A stretch of 64,000 nucleotides of DNA from Promethearchaeia archaeon (GCA_029856125.1 JAHQWJ010000148.1:8588-72587); one strand, 5' to 3'; shown: positions 1,631-57,594, counted from the first letter of the stretch. A program made the numbers and translations. Notes: generated by a model not told the origin, from the letters alone.

Positions 1631-1668
1631 GAAAAATTTAGATAAAATAAAGAGGAATGTAGTAGATT

Positions 1669-2589: not shown

Positions 2590-2607
2590 AATCATATGTG
2601 AAATAAA

Positions 2608-7923: not shown

Positions 7924-7928
7924 AAAAT

Positions 7929-9248: not shown

Positions 9249-9266
9249 AAGAGGTTTATTATAGAA

Positions 9267-19974: not shown

Positions 19975-20745
19975 TTATTCCAATATCTGATGAATATTAT
20001 CTTTTATTATTTGATAACTAGTTGATTTATCGGATATGTCGATTATTGGTTTACCTTCTAAATCAAATTCTGTTAAGATTTCATCCTCGGGAATCGAAGC
20101 AATCGCAGTTAGATCGTACTCTTTAAGCTTATCTGTGATTTTAGCAATATCTCCTTTAACTCTATTAATAATAACCCCGATTTTTCTGTAATTTGTAAAT
20201 TTTTTAGCACTTTGACTTATCGAATACGCCGTTTCTACGCTCCTAAGAGAAATATCTGTTACGATTATTACGTAATCTACAGATTTTATTACCATCCTAT
20301 TAATTTGTTCGAGACCGGCCTCACAATCAATCAATACGATATCAAAATCCTGTGAAATAGATTCAATAACTTTTCGTAGAAGAGCGTTGGAAGGGCAAAA
20401 GCAACCTGGCCCTTCAGGTTGACCAATTGAAAACAAGCTAAAATCTTTACTTTCCTTTATGGCGCTATAGACCTTAAAATCTATTGACTCTGCTATCGCT
20501 TGAATATTTTCCTTTTTACTAATTGTGTTATCAATTAGATCTGCTCTTATCTTTTCGAGACTTTCCTCCGGGACTAATTTAACCATTTTACTGAGGTGTG
20601 GATGGGTTGGATCCGCATCAATCAATAATAATTTAAACTTATAGGATGTAGAAATAGCTTTAGCAATAAGAGTAGTTATAATTGTTTTACCGACGCCTCC
20701 TTTTCCGGTGATAGCAATTATAAGCGGGGTTTTTTTCAGTTCCAT
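19975..20745 (-). CDS. CooC/AcsF-like MinD-family ATPase (putative metallocentre maturation factor)
   Basis: 256 aa with the deviant Walker A 'GKGGVGKT' and the CooC-type 'GPGCFCP' C-x-C motif. Confidence 0.7.
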   Translation of the reverse strand: MELKKTPLIIAITGKGGVGKTIITTLIAKAISTSYKFKLLLIDADPTHPHLSKMVKLVPEESLEKIRADLIDNTISKKENIQAIAESIDFKVYSAIKESKDFSLFSIGQPEGPGCFCPSNALLRKVIESISQDFDIVLIDCEAGLEQINRMVIKSVDYVIIVTDISLRSVETAYSISQSAKKFTNYRKIGVIINRVKGDIAKITDKLKEYDLTAIASIPEDEILTEFDLEGKPIIDISDKSTSYQIIKDNIHQILE

Positions 20746-20776: not shown

Positions 20777-21538
20777 TTAAATCTCTTCTCGAGAAACTAA
20801 CACTTGTTTGATTTTGAAGCATTCTTCTCTATACGGGCATATTTCACAGCCCCAATCGTAATCACAATCAATTCTTTTTTTCCATTCGTCTATTTTCTTT
20901 TTCCATTTTTCTTTTAACTTAGAATGGATATCTGCCGAATGCACAATAAATTGCTCAATAGAGTCTTGATAAGAATTAATGAAAATGATTTCTACTGATT
21001 TAATTAAACCTTTAAATTTTTGTTGATACAGAGAAATTATCGCATTTCCTAAGAATTCGAACGAAAAGCCTTTCTCTAGAGCTGAAGTATTAATTCTACA
21101 CCAAAACCTACGAGGAATTGTTCGAATTGAAAACCCTTCGATACCATTTGAGATGAAATTCAAATGTCTTAACTCATCGATTTCCTTATCAGTACCTTTA
21201 TTGATTCCAATTAATACCATCATTCCAAAATCTATGTTCGTCTCTCCTATCGCATTTATTTCTCTCCCTAATAATGTTATTTTTCCGTGCTCAACTAATC
21301 GAGCGTCGCTAATTGGAAATATAATTGAAAATGATTTTCTATTGACCCCACCAAGCTCTAAACCAGTTTCCTCTCCAAGGATTATTTCTTTGTGGCTATT
21401 TAATCCTACTTTTATGTTAGAATTATGAACTAAATTGATCTGGTTTGAGTCACATCGATAGGAAAATAAGGTTTTTCCACGATTCTGCTCTTGTTCTAAG
21501 AAATCTCTTATCTTTTCAAGAATAACTTTATTTTCCAT
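20777..21538 (-). CDS. Hypothetical protein with C-terminal Cys cluster; possibly related to part of acetyl-CoA synthase (CdhC/AcsB)
   Basis: 253 aa. 'GLELGGVNRKSF', 'IEGFSIRTIPRRFWCRINTSALEKGFSFEFLGNAI' and 'VEIIFIN' resemble, from memory only, CdhC/AcsB blocks. The C-terminus reads 'CDYDWGCEICPYREEC'. Confidence 0.4.
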   Translation of the reverse strand: MENKVILEKIRDFLEQEQNRGKTLFSYRCDSNQINLVHNSNIKVGLNSHKEIILGEETGLELGGVNRKSFSIIFPISDARLVEHGKITLLGREINAIGETNIDFGMMVLIGINKGTDKEIDELRHLNFISNGIEGFSIRTIPRRFWCRINTSALEKGFSFEFLGNAIISLYQQKFKGLIKSVEIIFINSYQDSIEQFIVHSADIHSKLKEKWKKKIDEWKKRIDCDYDWGCEICPYREECFKIKQVLVSREEI

Positions 21539-27168: not shown

Positions 27169-28425
27169 ATGGGTAATAAAGAAGAAAATGAATCATCGTC
27201 CAAGAAGATTTTGAAAGAAACAAAAGAAAATGGCGAAATAGCCATGCGAGAGAAGGAAGCTAAAGTTAGAGGGCTTTACGTGAAGATGTTGGAAGATGCC
27301 GCGAAGTATGCAGTGCAGTATGAGTTCTACGCAGAGGACATGAAGGATTTCCACGAAGTAGTGCAATGGAAGTTCGGTCCTATCAGAGGATATCAAGTAT
27401 TCGACGAAACAGAGTATTCATTCAAAATCGACGAAGAGGCTGAAGATCCGACCTTAATACTGGGGTGCAAGGATCTTGATCTGGCCTACCAGTTCCTCAA
27501 CGACGAAATCAGTCATTGGCCGGCCCTTCTGGGGACTAAGTTCTTGGTTGGCACAAAGGGCCCCGACGGGACTTATAAGGAAAAGAGAATTGGAAAGTTA
27601 ACTGGTTTTGCCCCCGGCAATGCCCCTAGGTTGAGTACCGCAAAAGAGAATGCCCCCCCCGAGCAAAAAAGATTGTCTTCTCGTCTGTTGAGAATACCCG
27701 TGTTTCGGCCGATCATGGAGCGAACCACAGATCCCGAGAACTCGAACGACGTTCGCATTCCAATCAATGAGTCCTTGGGTACATATGAGAACCAGTCGAT
27801 ACCGCTCGCAGTTCTCGAATACTTCATAAACAAGGCAAGTGACGTCTATATCTTCAATATGTGCCCGTGTCGCTCGCTCGCCAATTGCGAGAATTATGAC
27901 CATTCCATCGGATGCATGGCCCTGGGTAAGGGGGCCCTGAGGATGAATACCTTTGGAAGGATCGGTACCAAAGAAGAGGCATTGGAACGATCGCGACGTG
28001 CTGTTGCTGCTGGTCTCCTGCCTTCTCTGGGGAGAGTCAAATCCGATACGATCGTCTATAGGGCTTTGCCTGAACAGGGCGATCTGATGCATATTTGCTT
28101 CTGTTGCCCCTGTTGCTGTGTCGAGGGCTCTGGAAAGGACTCGCCAAGGTATCTAAGGCTGTGGCATCAGAAGATGGAGGGTGTGTCCGTCACGGTCAAT
28201 GAGGATCTCTGTAATGGATGCGAGCTATGCCTCGAGGTGTGCATATACGGTGGAATGGAGGTCATCGACCACATAGCCGTGATTGACCGGGAGGGCAAGG
28301 ATCACTGCAGAGGCTGCGGAAGGTGCGAGAGGGTATGCCCCACTGGAGCGATAACCATCACCATCGAGGATGATGGTGTGGAGAGGATGATTGCTCGCAT
28401 AGAGTCCTCCGTCGACGTCAGCTAG
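27169..28425 (+). CDS. Cys-rich Fe-S protein ('CPCR', 'CFCCPCCC', C-terminal 2x[4Fe-4S] ferredoxin domain); G+C-rich mosaic copy
   Basis: 418 aa, co-linear with 29835-31007. Motifs: 'CNGCELCLEVC' and 'CRGCGRCERVCP'. The gene body is markedly richer in G+C than the rest of the window. Confidence 0.7.
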   Translation: MGNKEENESSSKKILKETKENGEIAMREKEAKVRGLYVKMLEDAAKYAVQYEFYAEDMKDFHEVVQWKFGPIRGYQVFDETEYSFKIDEEAEDPTLILGCKDLDLAYQFLNDEISHWPALLGTKFLVGTKGPDGTYKEKRIGKLTGFAPGNAPRLSTAKENAPPEQKRLSSRLLRIPVFRPIMERTTDPENSNDVRIPINESLGTYENQSIPLAVLEYFINKASDVYIFNMCPCRSLANCENYDHSIGCMALGKGALRMNTFGRIGTKEEALERSRRAVAAGLLPSLGRVKSDTIVYRALPEQGDLMHICFCCPCCCVEGSGKDSPRYLRLWHQKMEGVSVTVNEDLCNGCELCLEVCIYGGMEVIDHIAVIDREGKDHCRGCGRCERVCPTGAITITIEDDGVERMIARIESSVDVS

Positions 28426-29834: not shown

Positions 29835-31007
29835 ATGGTAGAAAATAAAGCTGAAATTGAATCATTGTTTAAAAATATGCTAAAAGAAACTGAAAAAAAC
29901 GCTCCAAAAGACGCGATTTATCAGGAGGACATTAAAACTATCGGAACGCTTAAAGTCCAGTGGAAGATTTGTGGTATTTTGGGATATCAAATCTTCGAGC
30001 AAGATAAAGTCTCCTACAAATTTGGAGAAAAATTAGAAAAGCCAGATATATCGTTAGTTATTAGAGATAGCGAGATATCACTCACTTTCTTAAAGGGAGA
30101 ACTCTTTGAATTTGATTACGGCCCGGCTTATGGCGGTAATTTTAAAATCAATCAAACTATCGGATGGAAAGAGATTGAAAAAGAAACGGGTAAAAAAAAT
30201 GCTAGGATAAATAAACCTTTCCTGACAGCCCGATTTAACAAAGAAAAAGAATACCATCCTTATGTCTTATCAAAAATACCTATTTTTAGAAAACTTGTAA
30301 CACAACGAGTATCAGAAGATGATTTTGGAGCATTTATACCTATCAATAAAGCTCTTGGAACATATGAAAGTCAAATCATTCCTCTCAAGGTTTTTAAACA
30401 TTTTATTGATAAAGCGAGTAATATTGTCAAGATGAATGACTGTCCTTGTAGAACATACCATGAATGTAAAGATCACAATCGTGATCTAGGATGTATGCAC
30501 ATGGGTAATGATACGTTAAATTTCCCTTCACCCCATTTCAGGAGTAAAGTTATTTCGAAGGAGGAAGCCTTAGAACATGTTAGACTTTGCATTGAGGACG
30601 GTTTAATTCCATTACTCGGTAGAGTAATGGATGAAGCTGAGGGGTTTGGAGTTCCAGATACGGGACATTTCTTATCAATGTGTTTTTGCTGTCCTTGTTG
30701 CTGTATAGATGGTACTATCGTACAAAATGCCTCAAAAGGTCTAACTACGATTTTTAAAAGGATGGAGGGTATCACTGTGAAAGTTGACGAAGACCTTTGT
30801 GTTGGTTGTGAAGAATGTTTCGAGGTTTGTGTCTTTAATGGGATGGAAATGATTGATAACAAGGCTGTAGTGAACCAGGACAACTGCTTAGGCTGTGGCA
30901 GATGTGAAACCACTTGTCCTAACGAAGCCATCTCTATAACTATTACAGATCTTAGTTACGTTGATAATTTGATTAAAAAATTAGAAGCCCATGTTGATGT
31001 TACCTAA
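29835..31007 (+). CDS. Cys-rich Fe-S protein ('CPCR', 'CFCCPCCC', 2x[4Fe-4S] ferredoxin domain); AT-rich native copy
   Basis: 390 aa with 'CVGCEECFEVC' and 'CLGCGRCETTCP'. The N-terminal ~130 aa look SCP2-like ('KPDISLVIRDSEISLTFLKGEL'). Confidence 0.7.
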   Translation: MVENKAEIESLFKNMLKETEKNAPKDAIYQEDIKTIGTLKVQWKICGILGYQIFEQDKVSYKFGEKLEKPDISLVIRDSEISLTFLKGELFEFDYGPAYGGNFKINQTIGWKEIEKETGKKNARINKPFLTARFNKEKEYHPYVLSKIPIFRKLVTQRVSEDDFGAFIPINKALGTYESQIIPLKVFKHFIDKASNIVKMNDCPCRTYHECKDHNRDLGCMHMGNDTLNFPSPHFRSKVISKEEALEHVRLCIEDGLIPLLGRVMDEAEGFGVPDTGHFLSMCFCCPCCCIDGTIVQNASKGLTTIFKRMEGITVKVDEDLCVGCEECFEVCVFNGMEMIDNKAVVNQDNCLGCGRCETTCPNEAISITITDLSYVDNLIKKLEAHVDVT

Positions 31008-31161: not shown

Positions 31162-31584
31162 ATGATCTCAATTCAAAAAGGGGAGGATTTGCTCTCAATT
31201 TCCTTAAGCACCATCTTAAACCATAGGAAAGACGAGCCCGAATTTCAAAAACTTGTTATCGATTGGAACAAGAAGATTCTAATTGATATTGAAGATTTCT
31301 ATCCACTTGAAATTATATTTCATCGCAACGAGATTAAATTTAAAGTAAACGATATCGATAAAAAAGTAGATCTTAAAGTTAAAATGAACATTTACACCCT
31401 TTTAGATTTGGCTTACAGAAGACTAAACCCTGTAAAAGCCGTTTTTCAGCGTAAATTAAGATTTAAGGGATTGTTGAAATTTAGAATTTTATTAAAATTT
31501 ATGAACATTTTTCTGAAAAGCATGCAAATGGTTGCTTCAGACCCTAACAATAAATATTACGAATTAAATAAAGATATTAGGTAA
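31162..31584 (+). CDS. SCP2 (sterol-carrier-protein-2)-like small protein
   Basis: 140 aa with 'VDLKVKMNIYTLLDLAYRRLNPVKAVFQRKLRFKGLL', which fits the SCP2 pattern. Paralog of 34273-34695. Confidence 0.5.
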   Translation: MISIQKGEDLLSISLSTILNHRKDEPEFQKLVIDWNKKILIDIEDFYPLEIIFHRNEIKFKVNDIDKKVDLKVKMNIYTLLDLAYRRLNPVKAVFQRKLRFKGLLKFRILLKFMNIFLKSMQMVASDPNNKYYELNKDIR

Positions 31585-31602
31585 AATGGTGAAAGAAAAC
31601 AT

Positions 31603-33078
31603 ATGACTGCAACAAAGGAAAGAAATTTGTACGAGAAAATAAGGAAGGAGAATGTGTTTAAAAAATTAGGAGAAATATTTGGAAGTAAAAACGTCACAGA
31701 TAAATCTGTAGATTTATATCCTTACTCATACGATATGACCGAATGCGAAGCACACATGCCTGATTTTGTAGTTATTCCTGAAAATTCAGCTCAATTAATC
31801 GAACTAGTAAAATTTTGTAATCAAAATTCCATACCAATTGTACCTTACATATCTGGGAATAACGTTGGAGGTTTGACAATTCCAGAATACGGGGGTGTTG
31901 TCGTCGATTTTAGTAAGAAAATGAACAGAATTCTCCACATCAATGAAAATATGATGTATGCTCTCTTAGAGCCAGGAGTTACCTTCGGAGAATTAAAGAA
32001 ACAGTTAGACGAACATTATCCACATCTAAGATATAGTTACCCATTTGCTCCACCTTACGCAGGAGTGGTTGGAAATGTAATTTTGAGCGGTATGAATAAT
32101 CTTTCGTGTAAACTTGGTTCAATGGGAGATTCTATCAATGGACTAGAAGTTATAACTGCTGATGGCGAACTTATTCGAATTGGTTCTTGCTTTTATGGTA
32201 AGGATACCGCAGATGATGATTCTTGGTGGAGCAGATATCCGATGCCAGATTTAATGGGTTTATTTATCAATTGGCAAGGTATGACGGGTTTAGTAACCAA
32301 ATGCGCCGTACAGTTATGGCCAAATCCCCCTCTTAAGAAAACCTATCTTGGAATTGTTTTCGGCTTACCTGATATCGCACCGGTCATAAGAGAAGTTGGG
32401 AGGACTGAAATTGTTGATGACATTTCAGCAGTAAGTATTGAAGTTGTAAAAATGGCTGTAGAACTTCCAGAACCGGTAAAAATACCTGGTGAACCAGATT
32501 TTGCTGCACTTTTTTCTATTTCTGGGAAAACTGAAAGCCTTTTCAAAGCTAAGGAGGAATATTTAAAGCTAACTATAGAAAATTTGAAGAAAAAGGGCAT
32601 AAAAGTTCTTTTAGTTGATGCTGACGAGTTTACAAAGTTATTCAGTTTAAGAGTAAGATGCCATTTAGATCTACCAGCAGTCATTTTATCGTTAGTAGAA
32701 TATTCGGGGTTAACATGGTTTGGATCCTATGCTCCAACACATAAACTCGAAGATTTAATACCTCAAGTGAACGACCTGTTTATAAAATACAAAGTTCCTC
32801 CATTTATTTACATGAAAATAATGAAGCATTCTCATTATGGAATTTTTCGACCTATCCTTAGATATAATAAATACAAAGATGAGGAAAACATTCATAGCTT
32901 ACTAAACGAGATTGCAGAACTATGCATCGCCGAGGGCTGTATTCCTTATAAGACGCCTGCGTGGATGACGGAAAAAATGCGTGAGATAATCAATCCAGGT
33001 TGGCAAAAATTATTCGACAAAATTAAAAATTGCATTGATCCAAATAAAATATTTAATCCCGGAAGATGGAATACATGA
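31603..33078 (+). CDS. FAD-linked oxidase (PCMH/GlcD-type)
   Basis: 491 aa with 'FVVIPENSAQLIELVKFCNQNSIPIVPYISGNNVGG' and C-terminal 'IDPNKIFNPGRW'. Close paralog of 34706-36181. Confidence 0.75.
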   Translation: MTATKERNLYEKIRKENVFKKLGEIFGSKNVTDKSVDLYPYSYDMTECEAHMPDFVVIPENSAQLIELVKFCNQNSIPIVPYISGNNVGGLTIPEYGGVVVDFSKKMNRILHINENMMYALLEPGVTFGELKKQLDEHYPHLRYSYPFAPPYAGVVGNVILSGMNNLSCKLGSMGDSINGLEVITADGELIRIGSCFYGKDTADDDSWWSRYPMPDLMGLFINWQGMTGLVTKCAVQLWPNPPLKKTYLGIVFGLPDIAPVIREVGRTEIVDDISAVSIEVVKMAVELPEPVKIPGEPDFAALFSISGKTESLFKAKEEYLKLTIENLKKKGIKVLLVDADEFTKLFSLRVRCHLDLPAVILSLVEYSGLTWFGSYAPTHKLEDLIPQVNDLFIKYKVPPFIYMKIMKHSHYGIFRPILRYNKYKDEENIHSLLNEIAELCIAEGCIPYKTPAWMTEKMREIINPGWQKLFDKIKNCIDPNKIFNPGRWNT

Positions 33079-33138
33079 ATCATTATTAAGAATTTTTAAA
33101 AATTCTGTTAATTTATCCAAATAAAGGTGATACATTAA

Positions 33139-34170
33139 ATGATCGAAACAAATATAACAAAAATGTTTGGGATTAAACATCCTATATTTAGCGCTCCAAT
33201 GGGTCCCTTTTTTACCCGCGATTTAGCTCTAGCTGTCAGTGAAGCCGGGGGATTAGGAGTGTTATCAAACGTGAATATAGCTGGTACAGATCCCGTTAAG
33301 GAACATAAAGCAAGCCTTGAACACATGATTGAACATACTGATAAACCGTTCGGTCTTAATATCCTAACATCTCGGAATAATCCTGGAGTGAGACAAATGG
33401 TCAGATCATTACCAAGAATAGTCATGGGTAATGTAAAAATGCGCGATCAGTGTAAATATTGGCTGACTTCGGCAGGTTCTTCAAGAGTTCTCGCAGAATC
33501 GAAAAGTTTTATAGAATTAAGAGAGAATTCAGAAGTTAAACACTTTCACGTTGCTCCAGCTGTATGGTTGGCTCAGAAATGTATAGCTTCAAAAGTAGAT
33601 GGAATAGTGGTGACTGGTACTGAAGGTGGAGGTCATCAATCGTATGAGAGAGTTAGTACTCTTGTTCTACTACAACAGATTAATGAGAAATTCCCTGATT
33701 TGCCAAAGATTGCTTGTGGGGGTTTTGCTACTGGAGAGTCTTTAGCTGCAGCACTTTCGTTAGGTGCAGGAGCAGTAGCAATGGGATCAAGATTTATAGC
33801 TTCTAAGCAGAGCGAATTTCACGAAAAATACAAAGCGTTAATTCCCCCTGGAAATCCGCAAGATACAGGGCTCTATACTGGATCGTTCGGTCCTATTCGG
33901 TTGTATAAAAACGAATACGCATTATCGCATCCTGCGCCCAGTAGTAAAGAGGAAATGATCGCTTACGAAAACTCTATATCTCCAGAACAAAGAGCAAAAG
34001 ATATGGGTGCCTATGATAGGGTATACAATGGGGATATTAATACTGGAGCTGTTTTACTAGGTCAATCAATAGGAATTATTGATAGTATAGAGAATGTCAA
34101 TGATATTATTGAACGAATAATGAAAAACGCTGAAACTGCTATTAGAAGAAATAGTTCCATGTTAAAATAA
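33139..34170 (+). CDS. Nitronate monooxygenase / FabK-like FMN enoyl reductase family protein
   Basis: 343 aa with 'MFGIKHPIFSAPMGPF..DLALAVSEAGGLGVLS' and 'GTEGGGH'. Confidence 0.75.
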   Translation: MIETNITKMFGIKHPIFSAPMGPFFTRDLALAVSEAGGLGVLSNVNIAGTDPVKEHKASLEHMIEHTDKPFGLNILTSRNNPGVRQMVRSLPRIVMGNVKMRDQCKYWLTSAGSSRVLAESKSFIELRENSEVKHFHVAPAVWLAQKCIASKVDGIVVTGTEGGGHQSYERVSTLVLLQQINEKFPDLPKIACGGFATGESLAAALSLGAGAVAMGSRFIASKQSEFHEKYKALIPPGNPQDTGLYTGSFGPIRLYKNEYALSHPAPSSKEEMIAYENSISPEQRAKDMGAYDRVYNGDINTGAVLLGQSIGIIDSIENVNDIIERIMKNAETAIRRNSSMLK

Positions 34171-34272
34171 GACCAAATCTAAACTAAAAATAACCAATTT
34201 ATTCCTTTTTTTATAAATTGGGCAAAAGGTTAATTTGTTTTTAAAAAAAAAAACTAATATAAGTGAATTAAT

Positions 34273-34695
34273 ATGCTTAATATAGAATTCCCGGATGATT
34301 TAATTTCTATATCGTTGTATAATGTTTTCAGTTCGAGGAAGGACGATAGAAAATTTATAAAACACGCGAAAGATTGGAATACAAAAATAGTACTTCATAT
34401 CGAGCCTTTCTATCCCGTGACAGTAATCTTCGACGGTAGTAATATAAGGTTTGAAAGGAAAGAATATCCAAAACCAGACATGAAGGTTAAAATTCATATC
34501 AACACCATGCTTGATATCGCTAACGATAGGTTAAATCCTTTTTTTGCTATTGAAGAAAAAAAAATGGAAATTGAAGGATTAGGTGAAGATAGCGAAAAAA
34601 TTATGCGGTTTTTCAATATTTTTGTCTTATCTATGCAGATGGTAGCTCAAGAGCCTAATGTGAATTATTTTGAATTAAACAAGAATACCAGGTGA
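34273..34695 (+). CDS. SCP2-like small protein
   Basis: 140 aa, co-linear with 31162-31584 ('KPDMKVKIHINTMLDIANDRLNPFFAIEEKKMEIEGL'). Confidence 0.5.
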   Translation: MLNIEFPDDLISISLYNVFSSRKDDRKFIKHAKDWNTKIVLHIEPFYPVTVIFDGSNIRFERKEYPKPDMKVKIHINTMLDIANDRLNPFFAIEEKKMEIEGLGEDSEKIMRFFNIFVLSMQMVAQEPNVNYFELNKNTR

Positions 34696-34705
34696 TATAA
34701 CTCTA

Positions 34706-36181
34706 ATGACAGCAACAAAACAACGAAATGTGTTTGAAAAAATTTCAAAAGATAATGTTTATTCTAAATTAGTCGAGATTTTTGGTAGCGATTATGTTAC
34801 TGATAAAAATGTTGACTTGTACCCCTATTCTCAAGATATGACTGAGAACAAACCTCACATGCCCGATTTTGTGGTTATCCCTGAAAATAAAGAGCAATTA
34901 GTGGAACTAGTTAAGTTTTGTAACGAATATTCAGTTCCATTAGTTCCCTATACCACGGGAAATAATGTTGGAGGGCTTACAATCCCTGATTATGGCGGTA
35001 TTATTGTAGATTTTGGAAAAAGGATGAATAAAATCTTACATGTAGATGACAATATGATGTACGCCCTCTTAGAACCCGGTGTTACCTTTGGTCAACTTAA
35101 GAAACACCTAGATGAGAATTTCCCAAGTCTAAGATATAGCTACCCAAACGCGCCCCCTTACTCAGGTGTAGTTGGAAACGCCTTATTAAGCGGCATGACA
35201 AATTTGGGTGCAAAAATCGGCTCAATGGCAGATGGCATTAATGGTCTTGAGGTTATAACCTTTGATGGAACTGTATCTCGAATTGGATCGTGCTTCTACG
35301 GAAATGATAAATCAGAAGACGATAGCTGGTGGTGTAGATATCCGATGCCTGACCTTATGGGATTATTCGTCAATTGGCAAGGCATGACCGGCTTGATAAG
35401 CAAATGCGCCGTTCAATTATGGCCAAAAGAACCAATTGAAAAACCTCAGCTCGTTGTCTTTTTTGGGTTAACAGATTTAGGTCCTTTTTTGAGAGAGGTA
35501 GGTAGAGCAGATATTGTTAACGATGTTGCTGCATTTTCAGTGGAGGTTGCTAAAATGGAGGTTGGAATACCAGAACCCGTAAGATATCCTGGAGAACCTC
35601 TTTATACTGCCGTAATGCCGATGACGGCAAAAACTGAAAACCAAATGAATGCCAAATTAGAAATTCTTAACGATATAATTGAAAAGCTAAATAAAGAAGG
35701 AACTGATATTCATTTAATTGATTATAACGAGTTTGCTAAGCTTTTTGGTCTAAAAGCTCTCAATATTTACAACTTACCATCACAGATTCTTTCCTTACAC
35801 GAATATAGCGGACTTACGTGGTTTGGCGCCTATGCTCCCTCTCATAAATTTGAAGAATTAATTGAGAAAACAGATGCGTTGTATCATAAACATGGGGTAC
35901 CCCCGTTTAACTATCTTAAGATTATGAAAGGAGGTCATTATGGTATATTTAGACCTATCTTTCGGTTTAAGAAATTTACAGATCAAGACAAAATCGTTAA
36001 GTTATTGGAAGAAATAGCTGATGTTTGTATAGACTTAGGGTGTATACCTTATAAAACGCCATCGTGGTTGACTGCAAAATTGCGTAAGAAAATCAATCCA
36101 GGATGGATTAGTCTTTTTGAAAAGATAAAACATTGTATGGATCCTAATAATATATTTAATCCAGGAAGGTGGAACACATAA
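34706..36181 (+). CDS. FAD-linked oxidase (PCMH/GlcD-type)
   Basis: 491 aa, same length as and co-linear with 31603-33078. Confidence 0.75.
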   Translation: MTATKQRNVFEKISKDNVYSKLVEIFGSDYVTDKNVDLYPYSQDMTENKPHMPDFVVIPENKEQLVELVKFCNEYSVPLVPYTTGNNVGGLTIPDYGGIIVDFGKRMNKILHVDDNMMYALLEPGVTFGQLKKHLDENFPSLRYSYPNAPPYSGVVGNALLSGMTNLGAKIGSMADGINGLEVITFDGTVSRIGSCFYGNDKSEDDSWWCRYPMPDLMGLFVNWQGMTGLISKCAVQLWPKEPIEKPQLVVFFGLTDLGPFLREVGRADIVNDVAAFSVEVAKMEVGIPEPVRYPGEPLYTAVMPMTAKTENQMNAKLEILNDIIEKLNKEGTDIHLIDYNEFAKLFGLKALNIYNLPSQILSLHEYSGLTWFGAYAPSHKFEELIEKTDALYHKHGVPPFNYLKIMKGGHYGIFRPIFRFKKFTDQDKIVKLLEEIADVCIDLGCIPYKTPSWLTAKLRKKINPGWISLFEKIKHCMDPNNIFNPGRWNT

Positions 36182-37359
36182 TGGTTGAAATTAAAGAAGA
36201 TTTAATGGGAAAAGAAGTTTTGGAAATGGCATTTGATCGTTGTATCAAGTGCAGTACTTGTAAATATAGCTACAAGGATTTCGAAAAAATGTGCCCAAGT
36301 GGAGAAAAATTCCTATTCGAATCGTATTGGGCATCAGGCCGAATCAGAATAATACGAGGTGTTTTAAATGGCGATCTGGAGTGGACGGAGGATTTACTAG
36401 ATCCTATTTTTGCTTGTACAACTTGTGGCGCTTGTATGGACGCTTGTCAGGCACCCCACGCGGATTATATTGTCGAGATGATAGAAGCCCTAAGAGAATT
36501 AGCTGTAAAAAACATTGGACCAGCGGAAAACCAAAAATTCTTAGTTACCCGATGCGAAGACAGTTGTAATCCTTACGGCGATCCAAACTCAGATAACGCA
36601 GAGTTGAAAAAAGAGTACGACCTACCGGATAAAGCCGAATGGGTCTATTTTATAGGATGTACCTCAAACTACCGTCAAAAAAGCCTAAGAGATTCTACTC
36701 TGAGGTTTTTGAAAAAAGCGGGTATTGATTTTACATTAATAGACGAACATTGTTGTACAAGCCCTATGATTAGAACTGGTCAATTGAGCATTGTTGATGA
36801 ATATATGAAATATAATATCGATCAAATAAAAAAGGCTGGTGCGACTAAAGTAATCACCTCATGCGCAGGATGTTATAAAACTTTATCGAAAGATTTCGAG
36901 AGGTTTGTAAACGCATTAGAATTTGAAATCTACCATTCGCTCGAATTAGTGAAGAACCTCTTAGACGAGAAAAAGATAGAGTTTAAATTTGAATATAATA
37001 AAACCGTTACCTACCACGATCCGTGCCATTTAGGAAGACACATGGGGGTCTATGAGTTACCAAGAGAGATTTACAAACAGATACCCGGATTAAATTTAGT
37101 AGAAATGAAAAGAAATCGAAATTTTGCGTGGTGTTGTGGTGCAGGCGGCGGAGTGAAAATTGGTTATCCTGATTGGGCGTTAGAGGTTTCTAAAGATCGC
37201 TTAGAAGAAGCACAGGAAACCGGAGCAACGGTTATAACATCAACATGTCCATTCTGTAAAACTAACTTAAGCGACGCTAACGATAATTATAACTTTGATT
37301 TTGAAGTACTTGACCTAATGGAAATCATAGATCAATTGGATATTGAAATTGAGAAGTAA
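36181..37359 (+). CDS. (Fe-S)-binding CCG-domain oxidoreductase, GlcF/HdrD-like
   Basis: 'CIKCSTCKY...CP', 'CTTCGACMDAC', 'CCTS' and 'CCGAGGG'. The ATG at 36181 overlaps the upstream TAA (TAATG). Homolog of 10090-11349. Confidence 0.75.
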   Translation: MVEIKEDLMGKEVLEMAFDRCIKCSTCKYSYKDFEKMCPSGEKFLFESYWASGRIRIIRGVLNGDLEWTEDLLDPIFACTTCGACMDACQAPHADYIVEMIEALRELAVKNIGPAENQKFLVTRCEDSCNPYGDPNSDNAELKKEYDLPDKAEWVYFIGCTSNYRQKSLRDSTLRFLKKAGIDFTLIDEHCCTSPMIRTGQLSIVDEYMKYNIDQIKKAGATKVITSCAGCYKTLSKDFERFVNALEFEIYHSLELVKNLLDEKKIEFKFEYNKTVTYHDPCHLGRHMGVYELPREIYKQIPGLNLVEMKRNRNFAWCCGAGGGVKIGYPDWALEVSKDRLEEAQETGATVITSTCPFCKTNLSDANDNYNFDFEVLDLMEIIDQLDIEIEK

Positions 37360-38781: not shown

Positions 38782-39282
38782 ATGAAGTATAAAAGAAATC
38801 AATATTCTGAAGGAGTAAGCGTTTGCTCCTTCATTATAGCAGGTATTTTAATTTATATGGGAACTAACGATATATTTGTACCCCTTTGGGCAGGTACGGA
38901 TATAAATTGGTGGGGGCTTGTCTGGATTGGCATTGCAGCAGCAATAATAATAGGACAGATCGCAGCGTTGGCTAACAAAAGTAAGTTAAGAAACGCAGTT
39001 TTATACGAATACGAGGAACATCCGGAAGCAACCATCGATCAAATTAGTCAAAACACGGGAATTACGATAAGAGACGTACAAGCCATAGTATTAGACCTAA
39101 AAGCAAATGGCTTATTACGAGGTAAATTCTCTTCTACTACAGGACAAATGACGCATGCAGATATTATAAAAAAACCCCAAGAAGAAGTTTCAGAAGGAAA
39201 AGTAGTTTATTGTCCTAATTGTGGAACCGCCAAAGTTAAAGAATCGGCTATTTTTTGCTCGTATTGCGGAACTAAATTATAA
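38782..39282 (+). CDS. Membrane protein with wHTH-like middle region and C-terminal zinc ribbon
   Basis: 166 aa with two hydrophobic helices, 'IDQISQNTGITIRDVQAIVLDLKANGLL' and 'CPNCGT....CSYCGTKL'. Confidence 0.5.
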   Translation: MKYKRNQYSEGVSVCSFIIAGILIYMGTNDIFVPLWAGTDINWWGLVWIGIAAAIIIGQIAALANKSKLRNAVLYEYEEHPEATIDQISQNTGITIRDVQAIVLDLKANGLLRGKFSSTTGQMTHADIIKKPQEEVSEGKVVYCPNCGTAKVKESAIFCSYCGTKL

Positions 39283-41281: not shown

Positions 41282-42382
41282 TTAAGCACTTTGAGCATTA
41301 GCATTGACACTGCCAGTAGATGTTTTTAATGAAAACACATATCTATACATCGCATCTCCGTAGTTTAAAGTCGAGTAAACGCTTCCTAAACTTGTGATCT
41401 CCATAGTTGCGTGAGGTGTGTAATTAAGTGATCCTAGACTAGTTGAACCAACAAATTTAACATTGGTGTTAATTAAATTATCTCTATAAAGCACATCAAC
41501 GCTTCCTGTGGAAGTTTCCCAACTACCGGTTACATTTGCATCCATAGAGATATACTGATAAATTTCCGCATCGATACTACCTGTAGACGTTTTTAGATTT
41601 AAACTAATGTCTTTTGTGTATACCATATTATAACACTTGAAGGTCACACTGCCTGTGGAAACTGTTCCTATTAAATCATCCCCCATTAAACAGTTTGTAT
41701 AGTTTAACGATAACGATCCCGTTGATGTTAGAGCTCGAAAACCGCTGGTAAAATTAGTGTTAGCGGCAAAAGATTCTACGCTACCCGTGCTACTCGCGAG
41801 TCTAACTTTTCCTTGGAACTCGTTGTTTCCTAATGTTGTTAATTTGATTGAGCCCGTGCTTGAAGTTAATGAAGTTCCATTTAGAATGACATCATCAGAA
41901 ACCAGCATTTCAATAGATCCTACAGAAATTAAGGCGGTGAGATCGTATACTACATCTGTTCGTAAAGTAACAGCGACAGTAATGTTATATGATTTAAACC
42001 AATGCGATGGATTGAACCAGGCATCTGGTAGAGCTTGGAGATTAAAGATACCAGTCGTATTATCCCACCATTGTGTACTTGGATGAAAGAAATCCGTGTA
42101 TGTCTTTCCTTCCATATACAAGCCTGCAACTTCTATGTTTACATCGATTTTAGCGTAAGACGTAGTTGGAGTAGTATTATATGTAAAGAGAATTTTTCCG
42201 ATGTCTACATTGAAGGTAAGTTCTTCTATCGGATCGGGAGAACTTGGCTCGTACGAAAAATTAAACGAGTTTTCGATACTCCCTGAAGTTGCGAAACCGT
42301 AGATAACGAATCCTGCACCGCCACCTACAATTAGAGCAACTGCAATAATTAGAGCAATTTTATAATTTCTCATTTTTTTCAC
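41282..42382 (-). CDS. N-terminally anchored DUF4097-like ('toast-rack' beta-structure) repeat protein
   Basis: 366 aa with an N-terminal TM helix and about 9 '[ST]STGS[IVL]' repeats at about 20-aa spacing. Confidence 0.55.
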   Translation of the reverse strand: MKKMRNYKIALIIAVALIVGGGAGFVIYGFATSGSIENSFNFSYEPSSPDPIEELTFNVDIGKILFTYNTTPTTSYAKIDVNIEVAGLYMEGKTYTDFFHPSTQWWDNTTGIFNLQALPDAWFNPSHWFKSYNITVAVTLRTDVVYDLTALISVGSIEMLVSDDVILNGTSLTSSTGSIKLTTLGNNEFQGKVRLASSTGSVESFAANTNFTSGFRALTSTGSLSLNYTNCLMGDDLIGTVSTGSVTFKCYNMVYTKDISLNLKTSTGSIDAEIYQYISMDANVTGSWETSTGSVDVLYRDNLINTNVKFVGSTSLGSLNYTPHATMEITSLGSVYSTLNYGDAMYRYVFSLKTSTGSVNANAQSA

Positions 42383-42561
42383 AATAATTTTATTTGTTTT
42401 TTTTTAAATTACTTAATAGTGAAAGATTTTGGATTATATTTAAATGAAATTTAGACTGATTTTTATAAAGATCTCTGATGATATAAACTTTAATGCAAAA
42501 ATTGCCCCTTAAATAGCATTTTATGATAATTATTCATAAAAGCTTGTTAAAAAAAATGAAT

Positions 42562-43092
42562 TTAGAGATTTTTAATTAAAGAAGTAGCAAAATTCTTAGC
42601 ATTTTCGAGATCTATTTCATTAGGACGGCCTTTCATTTTCTCCATATCTTTTATCGCTTTCTCTTTTTGATCTTCCGGCAATTTTTCTAACATCCCTAAC
42701 TGAGTCTCTAAAGGAATGCCTAAATTCTCTCCAACGCAATCGAATTTTCCAATAATTTCACAATTATGTTCTTTAGCGATATTATTGATCCGCTTAAATG
42801 GTTCTTGATATAGTTTTAAACTTGCATGAGTACAAAAATAAGCGAGTTTCGCAGGGAGATCAGGAACAGCTTTTTTTACCAGAGTTAATACTGATTTATC
42901 AATTCGACTGGCATAAACTCCTGAGCCTAAAAACACAATATCGTATGAGTTCAATGTTTTAGGTTCAACATCTTTAACAGGAATCATGTCCACATCGTGG
43001 TCTGTTAAGCCGTCTTTCAAGCTATTTGCTACTTTTTCGGTATTTCCCGTATTTGAAAAAAAAGTAATTAAAATCTTCAATTTATACATCAA
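42562..43092 (-). CDS. Flavodoxin-like protein
   Basis: 176 aa with N-terminal 'ILITFFSNTGNTEKVA' and 'FLGSGVY'. Confidence 0.6.
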   Translation of the reverse strand: MMYKLKILITFFSNTGNTEKVANSLKDGLTDHDVDMIPVKDVEPKTLNSYDIVFLGSGVYASRIDKSVLTLVKKAVPDLPAKLAYFCTHASLKLYQEPFKRINNIAKEHNCEIIGKFDCVGENLGIPLETQLGMLEKLPEDQKEKAIKDMEKMKGRPNEIDLENAKNFATSLIKNL

Positions 43093-43185
43093 CTCTTTAT
43101 AGTAGAATAAAAATAAGAAATTTTTATGATTTTAAGATTTATGTAAAAAAAGCAATCTATAAACTGCTCATCAGATTAGAGACAA

Positions 43186-44094
43186 TTAACTTTCTACTTC
43201 TATTTTGAAGAAGTTTATAGCATTTTCAACAGTTATTCTACTTACTTCTTGTTGAGAGGTATTGTGAGAATAAGCAATTGCCGCTATAGAATATTTTACA
43301 TTTAAGGGCACATTTACGGGGCCTCTTAGATAAGGATGCTGGTAGTAACTATCTGTTTCTGTAACTAAAGCAGATAATGGAGATTGTTTTGTCACTCTAC
43401 GCCATTTGTTAATCCCATAAGCTGAACTTGGAACTGATAAAGTGTATCCTTGTTTGGGCAAACTTATTCCATACTCGTCTGGACCGGAGAAACAATGCCA
43501 CATAACGCGTTTAGGACTTATATTAAAGTCTTTAATTATATTAAGAATTTCTTTTGTTGCGCCATCCTTTTTATTATATCGATGCTGAGGGTGGTCTCGA
43601 TCAAATTCGTGCTCAGCTGCATTTCTAACATGTAGAACATAGGGTTTATTAATCTCCTCTGTTAATTCGAATATTTTTTTTAGTTCTGTAACCTGTTTTT
43701 CTCGTTTTTCAAGAGTTTTTGCGTGATGAAAATCCAAACCAATTTCTCCAATAGCCAGTAAGTTTTCCTTATATTTTTGAACATTTTCAACCCAATCTTT
43801 CCAATCTCTATTGTATTGGAGTTTAGCAGTGTAGGTGACAGTTTGAGGCGCCCAACCAATTGTAAAACCAATTTTCTCCTTTCCTTTAATAAAATTTAGG
43901 ATTAATTCAAGAGTACTATTATTGATCGAGCTGGTTACTAAGTACACGCCTCCATTATTCAAGAAGTCTCGATATTGCTGCTCATCAGAAGGTAATCTAT
44001 CGTTTTTTTTAGGTCGAGGGAATGGTAGGTGACAATGAACATCGATAATTTTCAGATTTTCTTCTGGTTCTGGGATATTGATTTTCTTGGTCAT
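43186..44094 (-). CDS. tatD: TatD-family metal-dependent hydrolase
   Basis: 'IDVHCHL', 'GEIGLDFHH', 'VLHVRNA', 'HCFSG' and 'ETDSYY'. Confidence 0.8.
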   Translation of the reverse strand: MTKKINIPEPEENLKIIDVHCHLPFPRPKKNDRLPSDEQQYRDFLNNGGVYLVTSSINNSTLELILNFIKGKEKIGFTIGWAPQTVTYTAKLQYNRDWKDWVENVQKYKENLLAIGEIGLDFHHAKTLEKREKQVTELKKIFELTEEINKPYVLHVRNAAEHEFDRDHPQHRYNKKDGATKEILNIIKDFNISPKRVMWHCFSGPDEYGISLPKQGYTLSVPSSAYGINKWRRVTKQSPLSALVTETDSYYQHPYLRGPVNVPLNVKYSIAAIAYSHNTSQQEVSRITVENAINFFKIEVES

Positions 44095-46169: not shown

Positions 46170-47198
46170 TTAATCTATCGACTCCCCTAAAGCTAATCGA
46201 CAGAGATCGCTAAGGATATAATTTTTTAACCCTTTTCGGCCAACTTTAGAGCCTAAGCTTTCCATACACATAGAACAATTGTAAACGCATGCTTCAGCAT
46301 CATGTTCTATCATATCATCTACGTTATCGCTTTGAGTTTTGCGCCCTAAAGCTTTTTTACCAAGAGTGGCAAATAATCCACCGCAGCATAAAGCGTTTTC
46401 TCGATCGTATTCCCTCTCTACCCTCTCAACACCTATTAATTCGCAAATTTTATCTACCCATTCGTCAACTTCAGGGAGAAAACGATTTGAGCAGGATCTT
46501 TGATAGGCTATTTTCATGCCTAGTTGTTTAACAGCAGATTTATGCTCTTTTAAATAGTTATAGAGATATTCGTAGATGTGAACAGGTTTAAAGCCAGGTG
46601 GAAGATCAATGTTATTTCTAGGACAAAAGGAAGCGTAAAATCCATAGCACTCGTCGTGAAAACATATCATTTCTTTAATACCTTGAGCTTTGATATTTGC
46701 CAATATCATTGGAGCCCTTTCTTTGATAATAGAGTCTCTTCCGTAATGATGATACATTAGGTTGCAAAAAAAGTCAAGGCCACTCACATATTGTAAATTT
46801 TCAAACAACTGCCCTTCCATATTTTTAGCATTTAATTTACCCAATCCACATTTATTTAACACTGGTTTATCAGAGTCAATTTCTTTTAATCTTACTTGAT
46901 CGTGGGGAGCAAATCTATTTACTGTACTCTCAATAATACCAGGGTTTATATTTAACGAATTGTATTTCTCGTGCAATTCTGTTATTAGATCGAAGGGATG
47001 AGATTCATAAGGACAATATTCCTCGCATGCAAAACAAGTAACACAGTCGGACAACACTCGAGATTCTTCCCCGTTGATCATTTTAGTTTTTTCTACTCGC
47101 GCTTCTTCAATATCGCTAAATTCCATCCATTGACAGCGAGTCAAACAATCTATATTTTCACATTTATCACAATTAGATTCGTCGAAAATTTTCTTCAC
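46170..47198 (-). CDS. HdrD-like (Fe-S) CCG-domain protein
   Basis: 342 aa with 'CVTCFACEEYCPY' and the C-terminal 'CCGG' block. Paralog of 47282-48316. Confidence 0.55.
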   Translation of the reverse strand: MKKIFDESNCDKCENIDCLTRCQWMEFSDIEEARVEKTKMINGEESRVLSDCVTCFACEEYCPYESHPFDLITELHEKYNSLNINPGIIESTVNRFAPHDQVRLKEIDSDKPVLNKCGLGKLNAKNMEGQLFENLQYVSGLDFFCNLMYHHYGRDSIIKERAPMILANIKAQGIKEMICFHDECYGFYASFCPRNNIDLPPGFKPVHIYEYLYNYLKEHKSAVKQLGMKIAYQRSCSNRFLPEVDEWVDKICELIGVERVEREYDRENALCCGGLFATLGKKALGRKTQSDNVDDMIEHDAEACVYNCSMCMESLGSKVGRKGLKNYILSDLCRLALGESID

Positions 47199-47281
47199 CC
47201 TTTTATAATTTAGTTTGATTTGTGTATATGTATTTCTCTACACTAATAATAATTATGATGAGATAAAAAAAATAGAAAAAA

Positions 47282-48316
47282 TTAGTATTCCAACTTTTCC
47301 CCTAACGCAAGTCGAGCCAAGTCGCTAATGAAATAGCACTTCATTCCTTTAGCTGTAACTTTCCTTTCTAACGTATCTTTACACATAGGACAATTGAATA
47401 TACAAACCTCAGCACCATGGTCTACCATATCCTGAACGTTGTCATTTTGAGTTTTACGAACGAGATTTTTATGACCCCTCATTGCAAAGGGTGCAGCGCA
47501 ACATAAACCATTTTCTCTATCGTATTTCCTAGCAACCCGTTCTACTCCGATAAGTTCGCATATGTTATCAAGGATTTTATCAGTTTCGGTTACATAACGA
47601 TTGGAACAGTTACGCTGATAAGCGGCTTTAAAGTTTAATTTTGTTATTTCAGATTCGTGATCCTTAAGATAATTATATACATATTCAAATATATGGACGG
47701 GTTTAAAAGGCACTTCAATGTTATTCCTTTGACAATATGAAGTATACAGTCCATAGCATTCGTCATGCCAACAGATGACCTCAGTATCCTTCTTAACACC
47801 AGTTTTTTTGAAGTTTTCAAGAATCAACGGAACTCTTTCCTTGATAATGGAAGGTGTGGCCGTGTGTTGATACATTAATTGACAAAAGAAATGTAAACCA
47901 CCAACTGATTGTAGATCATCAAACATTGGTCCTTTCATTTCTTTTGCATTCGTTTTAGGGAACGCGCACTTATCTAAAATTGGCTTTTCAGGATCAATCG
48001 GGCGTGGTACAAATTCTCCCTTTGCTTTAAACGTATCGATTGCATTTTGAGCAATTGCAGGTAAAATATTTTGAGAACTGTACTTTTCCTGAAGCTCATT
48101 GATTAAGTCAAAAGGATGCGAATTATATGTACAATACTCATCACAGGAAAAACATAGCATACACTCCTTCAAAATACGACAATCCTCATCCTCATTAATC
48201 AATTTAGCAACTTCTTTTCTAGCTGCGTCAATGCTCTCAAAAATGATCCATTGACACTTCATCATACAAGCAACTGTTTTACAATCTTTACAATGCGATT
48301 TATCAAACATATTCAT
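47282..48316 (-). CDS. HdrD-like (Fe-S) CCG-domain protein
   Basis: 344 aa, co-linear with 46170-47198 ('CMLCFSCDEYC', 'LCCAAPF', 'CPMC'). Confidence 0.55.
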   Translation of the reverse strand: MNMFDKSHCKDCKTVACMMKCQWIIFESIDAARKEVAKLINEDEDCRILKECMLCFSCDEYCTYNSHPFDLINELQEKYSSQNILPAIAQNAIDTFKAKGEFVPRPIDPEKPILDKCAFPKTNAKEMKGPMFDDLQSVGGLHFFCQLMYQHTATPSIIKERVPLILENFKKTGVKKDTEVICWHDECYGLYTSYCQRNNIEVPFKPVHIFEYVYNYLKDHESEITKLNFKAAYQRNCSNRYVTETDKILDNICELIGVERVARKYDRENGLCCAAPFAMRGHKNLVRKTQNDNVQDMVDHGAEVCIFNCPMCKDTLERKVTAKGMKCYFISDLARLALGEKLEY

Positions 48317-52023: not shown

Positions 52024-52069
52024 AAATTCACATCTTTTTGTTTTATTTTTATTCTGAAATTTCTCTAAG

Positions 52070-57462: not shown

Positions 57463-57594
57463 CATTTAGGGCGATCTTTTGTTTAATAAAAATATACTTT
57501 TTAAACCAATATTTATTGTATTTATATTAGTGCTTTTTATTTATTTTAAAAACATCGAAATTAGTTAAGCATAAAGCACTTGAAGGCATTTAAA

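Follow-up and report, generated by a model that had tools for sequence, protein, structure and literature searches.

A conserved gene module of Asgard archaea encoding an SCP2-fold protein, a PCMH-like flavoprotein and an HdrD-like CCG protein

Flavoenzymes of the VAO/PCMH superfamily include PCMH, the PchF/PchC flavocytochrome, and the related 4-phenol oxidoreductases (eugenol oxidase, VAO and 4-ethylphenol oxidase); PCMH passes its electrons to a dedicated redox partner subunit, a cytochrome c, and not to O2. A second described format, that of GlcDEF and of the Dld-HdrD/YdiJ-type enzymes, joins a flavin adenine dinucleotide (FAD) subunit of the VAO superfamily to a subunit with two [4Fe-4S] clusters and two CCG domains. 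The SCP2 fold, in turn, is found in UbiJ/UbiT, in the C-terminal domain of SdsA1/Pisa1 and in SCP-2L of MFE-2, where an SCP2 module serves one enzyme with a hydrophobic substrate, a concept that may extend to the proteins described here. We analyzed a stretch of 64,000 nucleotides from a Promethearchaeia archaeon (GCA_029856125.1 JAHQWJ010000148.1:8588-72587; hereafter the window), which has a G+C content of about 34% and contains no tRNA genes in its 64 kb, and in which genes for an SCP2-fold protein, a VAO/PCMH-type flavoprotein and an HdrD-like CCG protein form a module. The family of each part and the FAD-dehydrogenase plus CCG format are already known; new are the dedicated, co-evolving SCP2 subunit, a flavoprotein that is PCMH-like and not GlcD-like, and the linkage to a truncated acetyl-CoA synthase (ACS)-like protein and a CooC-type ATPase. 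We propose that the products of the module form a soluble, oxygen-independent dehydrogenase complex in which the SCP2 subunit hands a hydrophobic substrate to the flavoprotein, an interpretation that we regard as evenly poised between right and wrong. The genes concerned are the following.

31162-31584, plus strand: SCP2a, 140 residues, SCP2-fold protein, partner of oxidase A
31603-33078, plus strand: oxidase A (OxA), 491 residues, VAO/PCMH-superfamily FAD dehydrogenase of the OxA clade
33139-34170, plus strand: NMO/FabK-family flavin mononucleotide (FMN) protein, 343 residues, between the two modules, a facultative companion
34273-34695, plus strand: SCP2b, 140 residues, SCP2-family by Pfam, partner of oxidase B
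34706-36181, plus strand: oxidase B (OxB), 491 residues, VAO/PCMH-superfamily FAD dehydrogenase of the OxB clade
36181-37359, plus strand: CCG1, 392 residues from its ATG, HdrD/TfrB-like, with two [4Fe-4S] motifs and two CCG domains

The original prediction, made by a model from the sequence alone, had delimited the same six open reading frames (ORFs), and its coordinates and lengths agree with the ORF listing, as do the gaps between SCP2 and oxidase genes (18 nucleotides for SCP2a-OxA, 10 for SCP2b-OxB) and the TAATG stop/start overlap of OxB and CCG1 at 36179-36183. An alternative CCG1 start at 36169 would give 396 residues; the 392-residue ATG form is the one chosen by gene callers and has an exact public match. 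GGTGA-type motifs resembling a Shine-Dalgarno sequence precede OxA, NMO, OxB and CCG1, SCP2a having only a partial one, and each SCP2 gene follows an AT-rich spacer of 100-150 nucleotides with TATA-like boxes. Together, the motifs before the internal genes, the TAATG overlap and the TATA-like spacers suggest one transcript per module and hence two transcription units, SCP2a-OxA(-NMO) and SCP2b-OxB-CCG. Each window protein has exact copies in public collections, where it is found on 11 to 19 contigs.

The SCP2 profile of Pfam (PF02036, gathering cut-off 21.3 bits) recognizes both 140-residue proteins, SCP2a with 39.7 bits (E 6.6e-10) and SCP2b with 27.3 bits (E 4.8e-6), which confirms the family that had been proposed for them; the two are 45% identical (E 6e-39). 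SCP2a, the only one of the two to be modelled, gave an AlphaFold2 (AF2) model from a 23-sequence alignment with a predicted local distance difference test score (pLDDT) of 85.6 and a predicted template modelling (TM) score of 0.78, showing the SCP2 topology followed by a long C-terminal helix. Foldseek comparison of this model with the PDB returned 36 matches at E <= 0.001, all of them SCP2 proteins or domains with TM scores of 0.5-0.7. The top matches have E values of 4e-6 to 1e-4 and TM scores of about 0.6; the UbiJ SCP2 domain ranks first, and Thermus TT1886, human SCP-2L, the sec-alkylsulfatase SCP2 domain and Archaeoglobus AF1534 are also represented. The SCP2 fold that had been predicted is thus supported by profiles for both copies and by structure search for SCP2a. 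All 148 homologues recovered are 140 residues long, and each named one comes from an Asgard metagenome-assembled genome (MAG). Mean column identity across the family is 76%, the N- and C-terminal tails and two arginines are invariant, and the C-terminal tail is conserved yet modelled with low confidence. Unlike the SCP2 modules of UbiJ/UbiT, SdsA1/Pisa1 or MFE-2, these proteins are separate 140-residue polypeptides with a long C-terminal helix and a conserved tail, and have a VAO/PCMH partner, a combination that we did not find in the literature.

Conservation of the pairing was assessed by a profile scan with one genome per species, which gave 78 related loci, nearly all of them from Asgard MAGs, whose six-frame ORFs were screened with the window proteins. 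An SCP2 gene lies directly upstream, on the same strand, of 81 of the 91 full-length oxidase genes, often overlapping or fewer than 20 nucleotides away, and a CCG gene lies directly downstream of 64 of the 91; the commonest layout is a single SCP2-oxidase-CCG unit. The pairing on which the original prediction relied is therefore kept in other genomes. In the oxidase tree, the two window proteins belong to different clades, both of them old and both represented by orthologues in many MAGs, and the SCP2 partners show the same A/B split, with an SCP2b-like partner for 20 of 20 OxB-clade oxidases. Pairwise distances in 80 SCP2/oxidase pairs are correlated (r = 0.85). The shared split and the correlated distances indicate that SCP2 and oxidase were duplicated as one unit long ago and then co-diverged, so that the segmental duplication read from the window stands for the SCP2-oxidase unit and falls if it is taken to be recent; a recent tandem duplication is ruled out by the tree. 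The gene set is apparently largely confined to Asgard archaea: named homologues of the oxidase, of SCP2 and of their neighbours come from MAGs of Lokiarchaeota/Promethearchaeota, Hermod-, Hod-, Thor-, Heimdall-, Sigyn- and Helarchaeota, the exceptions being one bin labelled Bathyarchaeota (L075) and one labelled 'bacterium' (L081, 36%, no SCP2). By its protein homologues, the window belongs to a Loki-type Asgard archaeon of marine sediments. Among the other matches, three of about 950 residues with two FAD_binding_4 stretches (P0343, P0360 and P0365) have the look of oxidases duplicated in tandem, and another match (P0341) is a fusion of a seven-transmembrane protein and a methyltransferase. 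A Thorarchaeota contig (L084) carries a 37-residue C-terminal oxidase remnant (6059-6172, minus strand) between a CCG gene and a divergent pair of genes for the truncated ACS-like protein and its ATPase, flanked by two URO-D-family (methyltransferase-like) genes and an MFS_2 transporter.

The window holds a third oxidase-CCG pair, overlooked in the original prediction, which differs in its lack of a neighbouring SCP2 gene.

11333-12754, minus strand: oxidase C (OxC), third paralogue, 473 residues, SCP2-less
10090-11349, minus strand: CCG2, HdrD-like partner of OxC, 419 residues, overlapping OxC by 17 nucleotides

OxC combines FAD_binding_4 with FAD-oxidase_C, is 30% identical to OxB, keeps its Y-K motif and again has VAO/PCMH-type proteins as its nearest solved structures, and CCG2, which shares 38% identity with CCG1, has two CCG stretches and Fer4_8. 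In other loci, SCP2-less oxidases form a basal clade of their own (in a tree without the window OxC) and are always followed by a CCG gene, Helarchaeota included. Since these paralogues make up their own clade, SCP2 is an accessory to a single sub-clade, and the flavoprotein-CCG core can do without it; a clade-specific SCP2 protein is as expected for a substrate-specific adaptation. These findings bear on an alternative in which the SCP2-like protein serves not as a ligand carrier but in structure or regulation, for instance as a cap, as an assembly factor or for dimerisation, and has merely kept the SCP2 fold. Its conservation is indeed very high for a generic carrier (76% mean column identity, invariant tails), its co-evolution with the oxidase is tight, and the conserved low-confidence tail is what a docking peptide might look like. 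SCP2-less paralogues nevertheless pair with the same kind of CCG partner, so that SCP2 is not needed to assemble the redox core, and the characterised SCP2 domains among the Foldseek matches are all tied to hydrophobic ligands, an association well known for UbiJ, SCP-2L and the alkylsulfatase SCP2 domain. We consider a purely structural role improbable. With the SCP2 family confirmed and the pairing conserved, it remains reasonable to infer, as the original prediction did, a hydrophobic substrate handled through a dedicated SCP2 partner. An arginase-family gene (12882-13979, plus strand) is divergent from the OxC-CCG2 pair, and arginase-family genes also lie near this type of oxidase in L017, L027 and L085.

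Both 491-residue flavoproteins (65% identical, E 0) contain the PCMH-type FAD domain ascribed to them: FAD_binding_4 (PF01565) matches OxA and OxB with E values of 5e-29 and 5e-26, and FAD-oxidase_C (PF02913, cut-off 21.2 bits) with 23.6 and 31.9 bits. FAD_binding_4 with a C-terminal cap domain, and a Foldseek E value of 1e-25, place them in the VAO/PCMH superfamily. Single sequence and family profile alike give the PCMH flavoprotein (1dii) as the best solved relative of OxB, aligned over OxB residues 20-488. Against solved structures, the oxidase family profile scores 135 bits for PCMH over the full length, 118 bits for eugenol oxidase, 92-102 bits for bacterial vanillyl-alcohol dehydrogenases/oxidases and 80 for fungal VAO, 77 bits for D-lactate dehydrogenase (D-LDH), 70 bits for glycolate oxidase and 45 bits (E 5e-11, FAD domain only) for the alkyl-DHAP synthase AGPS. 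Together with a score of 91.6 bits for the NCBIfam GlcD model TIGR00387 (cut-off 567.9), this ranking shows that these proteins are not GlcD-like. The AF2 model of OxB is moderate (pLDDT 70), and its top Foldseek matches are 4-phenol oxidoreductases, with D-LDH close behind. By sequence comparison, the family is a divergent sister of the 4-phenol oxidoreductases, without their full signature. The position of the covalent-flavin residue of PCMH, Tyr384 (His422 in VAO), aligns with His, Val or Leu depending on paralogue and alignment, in a region with pLDDT below 50, and the FAD is probably non-covalently bound. Given a strictly anaerobic host, these proteins are better called dehydrogenases than oxidases.

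CCG1 contains two CCG stretches plus Fer4_8 according to Pfam, with the cysteine motifs CxxCxxC...CP, CxxCxxCxxxC, CCT/CCG and CxxC (twice), and thus has the HdrD/TfrB-type layout, with two [4Fe-4S] motifs of the ferredoxin type ahead of two CCG domains. Among the NCBIfam models, TfrB matches best (221.8 bits, covering model positions 177-486), ahead of LdhH (136), GlpC (98) and GlcF (51.9), with TmcB also among the followers. Of the earlier label 'GlcF/HdrD-like', the HdrD/TfrB half is upheld by the TfrB score (222 bits), and the GlcF half is not, at 52 bits against a cut-off of 333 for model NF008434. The TfrB score falls short of equivalog level (cut-off 385), and CCG1, although soluble like TfrB/HdrD and similarly equipped with two cubane motifs and two CCG domains, is without the N-terminal [2Fe-2S] part of TfrB. 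The two paralogous flavoprotein genes and one CCG gene of the window recall GlcD, GlcE and GlcF, but the GlcD and GlcF models remain far below their cut-offs, the known systems of this format have no SCP2 protein, and the single-copy SCP2-oxidase-CCG layout, being the commonest, means that a D/E heterodimer is not required. No transmembrane helix is predicted in any core protein, and all are predicted to be soluble; since, in addition, no conserved membrane anchor is encoded nearby, a quinone-linked respiratory role is unlikely.

In the complex that we envisage, the core would be the product of three genes in a row, the 140-residue SCP2-fold protein, the 491-residue VAO/PCMH FAD protein and the HdrD/TfrB-like CCG protein. 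The SCP2 subunit would bind a poorly soluble hydrophobic substrate, probably with an anionic head, and hand it to the flavoprotein, which would take a hydride onto non-covalently bound FAD. Electrons would then leave singly, by way of the two cubane clusters, for the CCG clusters of the HdrD-like subunit, just as those of PCMH go to a dedicated partner and not to O2, and from there to a soluble final acceptor, either a disulfide/thiol couple or a low-potential protein; with no membrane anchor encoded, a quinone is an unlikely acceptor. To our knowledge, coenzymes M and B are not made by Asgard archaea of this type. The reductive direction would be equally possible, as in thiol:fumarate reductase (TfrAB).

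Several findings weigh against this proposal, beginning with the active site of the flavoprotein. In HMMER alignments, the invariant Tyr449-Lys450 coincides with the phenolate-binding Tyr473-Arg474 of PCMH (the residue numbers of the phenolate triad are consistent with the printed PCMH sequence). Of the triad Tyr95, Tyr473 and Arg474, then, only Tyr473 is kept: Arg474 is replaced by the invariant lysine, and the Tyr95 position is a one-residue deletion (GNNVG-GLT) in all 22 aligned members. With the triad incomplete and the GlcD model far below its cut-off, neither known substrate class is backed by signature residues. Four loops of the OxB model (84-94, 162-176, 198-228 and 358-372), which are active-site loops, have pLDDT below 50. 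At the level of gene order, modules without a CCG gene occur (L013-L018, L059, L066-L069 and L072-L074), the HAD/BCR and CdhC-short associations described below are frequent and not universal, and the 150 best representatives from an exhaustive search include neither SCP2-oxidase nor oxidase-CCG fusions, the lack of an SCP2-oxidase fusion being the relevant part here. Finally, the searchable literature yielded nothing on this module in Asgard archaea, on a combination of SCP2 and a VAO/PCMH enzyme, or on PCMH with partners of the Hdr type; a preprint notes only 'one SCP-2 homolog' in MK-D1 (PMC12139934).

The same active-site residues bear on a more specific alternative, namely a PCMH-like 4-alkylphenol dehydrogenase that performs benzylic oxidation of a para-substituted phenol via a quinone-methide, with the HdrD-like protein in place of cytochrome c and SCP2 solubilising the phenol; candidate substrates would be p-cresol, 4-hydroxyphenylpropionate or its CoA ester, or lignin-derived phenols. 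PCMH (135 bits, full length), eugenol oxidase, 4-ethylphenol oxidase and VAO are the best matches in sequence, profile and fold, the Tyr-basic pair aligns with Tyr473-Arg474 and BCR/HAD-family genes lie nearby, while stable-isotope probing has connected Lokiarchaeota with the turnover of lignin and humic acid (PMC8027215). Identity to PCMH, on the other hand, is only about 22%, Tyr95 is deleted in all members, lysine replaces arginine and no Tyr or His aligns reliably at the covalent-FAD site. The module also differs from PCMH in its HdrD-like Fe-S/CCG partner, its dedicated SCP2 subunit and its archaeal, anaerobic host, and the conserved neighbourhood contains no other aromatic-pathway genes, such as those for 4-hydroxybenzoyl-CoA reductase. 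On balance, we judge this alternative unlikely.

Two groups of neighbouring genes that the original prediction had missed suggest in which pathway the SCP2-fed dehydrogenase might operate.

19975-20745, minus strand: CooC/MinD-family P-loop ATPase, pairs with CdhC-short
20777-21538, minus strand: CdhC-short (truncated ACS-like protein), ACS middle domain plus invariant C-terminal Cys4 motif
6802-10037, plus strand: HAD/BCR/double-cubane-family enzyme, two HGD-D subunits plus ATP-dependent activator

CdhC-short is present in 42/79 loci and the CooC-like ATPase in 40/79; the two are adjacent in every layout examined, usually divergent just upstream of the module and co-directional after CCG in Sigynarchaeum and others. 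The 253-residue CdhC-short (PF03598) aligns only with residues 337-494, the middle domain, of Moorella ACS, and in 40 sequences shows a conserved RxIPRRFWxR stretch (the Trp/Arg patch) and an invariant C-x5-C-x2-C-x5-C motif, 13 residues past which the protein ends. The ATPase combines CbiA, AAA_31 and Fer4_NifH matches with the motifs GKGGVGKT and GPGCFCP, the latter containing the CxC typical of CooC. This arrangement, an ACS middle domain including the Trp/Arg patch followed by a CooC-type ATPase, resembles CdhC/AcsB with CooC/AcsF. In contrast to CdhC/AcsB, the A-cluster domain with its Cys-Gly-Cys nickel site is absent (there is no CGC in the sequence), and CdhC models score 51-57 bits against cut-offs of 356-372; CdhC-short cannot be an acetyl-CoA synthase, and it may be a new metalloprotein. 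Its family comprises 404 homologues, all named ones from Asgard archaea, under the NCBI name 'hypothetical'.

The genes at 6802-10037, which contain HGD-D twice and BcrAD_BadFG, adjoin OxC-CCG2, and HAD/BCR-family homologues, often with the activator, adjoin the oxidase-CCG module in 12 other loci, the most divergent ones included. The HGD-D proteins score best as double-cubane reductase (239 bits, below cut-off), followed by BzdN (171) and HadC (161), and the activase reaches 270 bits, above cut-off; neither HAD nor BCR was assigned. MFS_2 transporters are further neighbours of the module. Because HAD/BCR radical enzymes, the truncated ACS-like protein and, less often, the FMN enoyl-reductase-like protein recur beside the module, the substrate would most likely be a hydrophobic intermediate of anaerobic amino-acid or aromatic-acid fermentation, in keeping with a genuine hydroxyproline dehydratase (HypD) elsewhere in the window; such an intermediate could be an aryl- or branched/long-chain 2-hydroxy acid or a 4-hydroxyphenyl-alkyl compound, perhaps in the form of its CoA ester.

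The FMN protein between the two window modules belongs to the NMO family (PF03060, E 5e-40), as had been stated, and falls short of FabK, the other half of that statement (161.4 bits for TIGR03151, cut-off 453.1); general NMO family is as far as the assignment goes. It occurs in 12/79 related loci, and its position between two units recurs in the closest relatives (L001/L005, L004, L007, L008, L009 and L015).

This protein and the HGD-D genes enter into a second specific alternative, a D-2-hydroxy-acid/2-oxo-acid oxidoreductase for hydrophobic side chains (phenyllactate, 2-hydroxyisocaproate or long-chain 2-hydroxy acids), which with an HAD-type dehydratase and an enoyl reductase would belong to a Stickland-like reductive branch or to 2-hydroxy fatty-acid catabolism. 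Glycolate, D-lactate and glycerol-3-phosphate dehydrogenases are known to pair an FAD dehydrogenase with a CCG protein, HGD-D genes accompanied by an activator sit next to the module in 12 loci and in the window, an NMO/FabK-like protein lies between the two modules, and the window is rich in amino-acid fermentation genes, such as the bona fide HypD. Against it stand the profile scores (D-LDH 77 and GlcD 70 bits versus 135 for PCMH), the GlcD model far below its cut-off and the best score of the HGD-D proteins, which is for double-cubane reductase and not HadBC. The C-terminal motif of the oxidases is moreover G-x-x-x-Y-K, as in VAO/PCMH, and differs from E-H-G, which we take to be the motif of metal-dependent D-2-hydroxy-acid dehydrogenases; a search of the C-terminal 93 residues against the PDB for this comparison gave no significant matches. 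We therefore give this alternative, too, a low probability.

A wider proposal, which we hold far more tentatively than that of the SCP2-fed dehydrogenase and expect to be wrong more readily than right, is that SCP2, the PCMH-like flavoprotein, the HdrD-like protein, CdhC-short and the CooC-type ATPase form one Asgard-specific system. In it, a carrier-bound substrate of the acyl/aryl-CoA type would be oxidised or reduced at the flavin, which the CCG clusters would connect to a new metal centre housed by the ACS-derived subunit, and the Loki-type SCP2 homologues found here would be enzyme subunits and not membrane lipid transporters.

The lipid theme that the original prediction drew from other window genes is not backed by the conserved neighbourhood: the type-B esterase is found in no related locus, the gene for the long-chain acyl-CoA ligase is 23 kb distant and on the opposite strand, and NMO is confined to the loci counted above. 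A case for an enzyme of lipid biosynthesis that acts on precursors of membrane lipids, whether for ether lipids (alkyl-DHAP-synthase-like) or for isoprenoid quinones (UbiJ/UbiT-like), could be made in that AGPS is a VAO-family flavoprotein, the UbiJ SCP2 domain is the top Foldseek match of SCP2a, and both in the window and in 8/79 loci the module is followed by a radical SAM/SPASM gene. AGPS aligns with the FAD domain only, and a role of that kind was rejected on its score; prenyltransferase, Ubi and Men genes are missing from the neighbourhood, the radical SAM protein reaches 65 bits for the tetraether synthase Tes (cut-off 450), and the conserved neighbours are catabolic and redox genes. We regard a biosynthetic role as very improbable, and both it and a structural role for SCP2 as less likely than either of the two specific substrate alternatives.

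The module is widespread in Asgard archaea with its order conserved, has three paralogues in one genome and fits none of its annotated names, which are 'glycolate oxidase', 'FAD-binding oxidoreductase', 'heterodisulfide reductase D' and 'hypothetical protein'. Most of what is said about the metabolism of Asgard archaea, the nearest relatives of eukaryotes known so far, has been deduced from annotation. If SCP2 feeds a flavoprotein-HdrD complex, this would be a new format of anaerobic dehydrogenase, would point to hydrophobic fermentation intermediates or phenolics as substrates of Loki-type archaea in sediments, and would bear on the origin of eukaryotic lipid-transfer proteins, the SCP2 homologues here being metabolic enzyme subunits and not inter-membrane lipid shuttles. 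An unexplored, putative metalloprotein family is represented by the truncated ACS-like protein, which has a CooC-type ATPase of its own.

Downstream of the second module, the window shares a further context with other OxB-type loci.

41282-44094, minus strand: OxB-type context, comprising an unknown 366-residue protein with one N-terminal transmembrane helix, a flavodoxin and a TatD-family hydrolase

The order SCP2b and OxB on one strand, followed by the 366-residue protein, flavodoxin and TatD on the other, is found in L013, L014, L016, L018 and L059/L082 as well as in the window. In L082, a third, divergent SCP2 gene (10925-11347, minus strand; Pfam SCP2) lies downstream of the unknown 364-residue protein of this context; the window has no counterpart, with only 385 nucleotides between the esterase and the 366-residue gene. 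Also downstream of the module, at 38782-39282 (plus strand) and in 8/79 loci, is a gene for a 166-residue protein with two predicted transmembrane helices, a winged-helix-like middle and a C-terminal zinc ribbon, which could be a membrane-tethered regulator. Upstream, at 27169-28425 and 29835-31007 (plus strand), are two paralogues of about 400 residues (418 and 390, 39% identical) with a C-terminal 2x[4Fe-4S] domain, an N-terminal 300 residues without assignment and a CFCCPCCC motif. A cryptic SCP2 domain in the N-terminal half of the 390-residue protein was considered and rejected (hhalign probability 0.2). The pair also occurs in L001/L005 and L035, in 4/79 loci in all, and is not part of the core.

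Elsewhere in the window, a second HGD-D pair (50734-53218, minus strand) scores best as double-cubane-cluster anaerobic reductase, below cut-off. The HypD referred to above is a glycyl-radical enzyme (trans-4-hydroxy-L-proline dehydratase; 57580-59955, plus strand) that scores 1291 bits against a cut-off of 1100; the ORF after it (60004-60693, 229 residues) has no NCBIfam match, and no obvious activase lies next to it. Three consecutive ORFs of 302, 306 and 304 residues at 722-3522 (plus strand), without Pfam match, may be a tandem paralogue array. At 46170-48316 (minus strand), two tandem proteins of about 343 residues, with one weak CCG domain each, are followed by a DUF6125 protein and a GH2 glycosidase, and DUF6125 is also found near the OxB-type module in L082.

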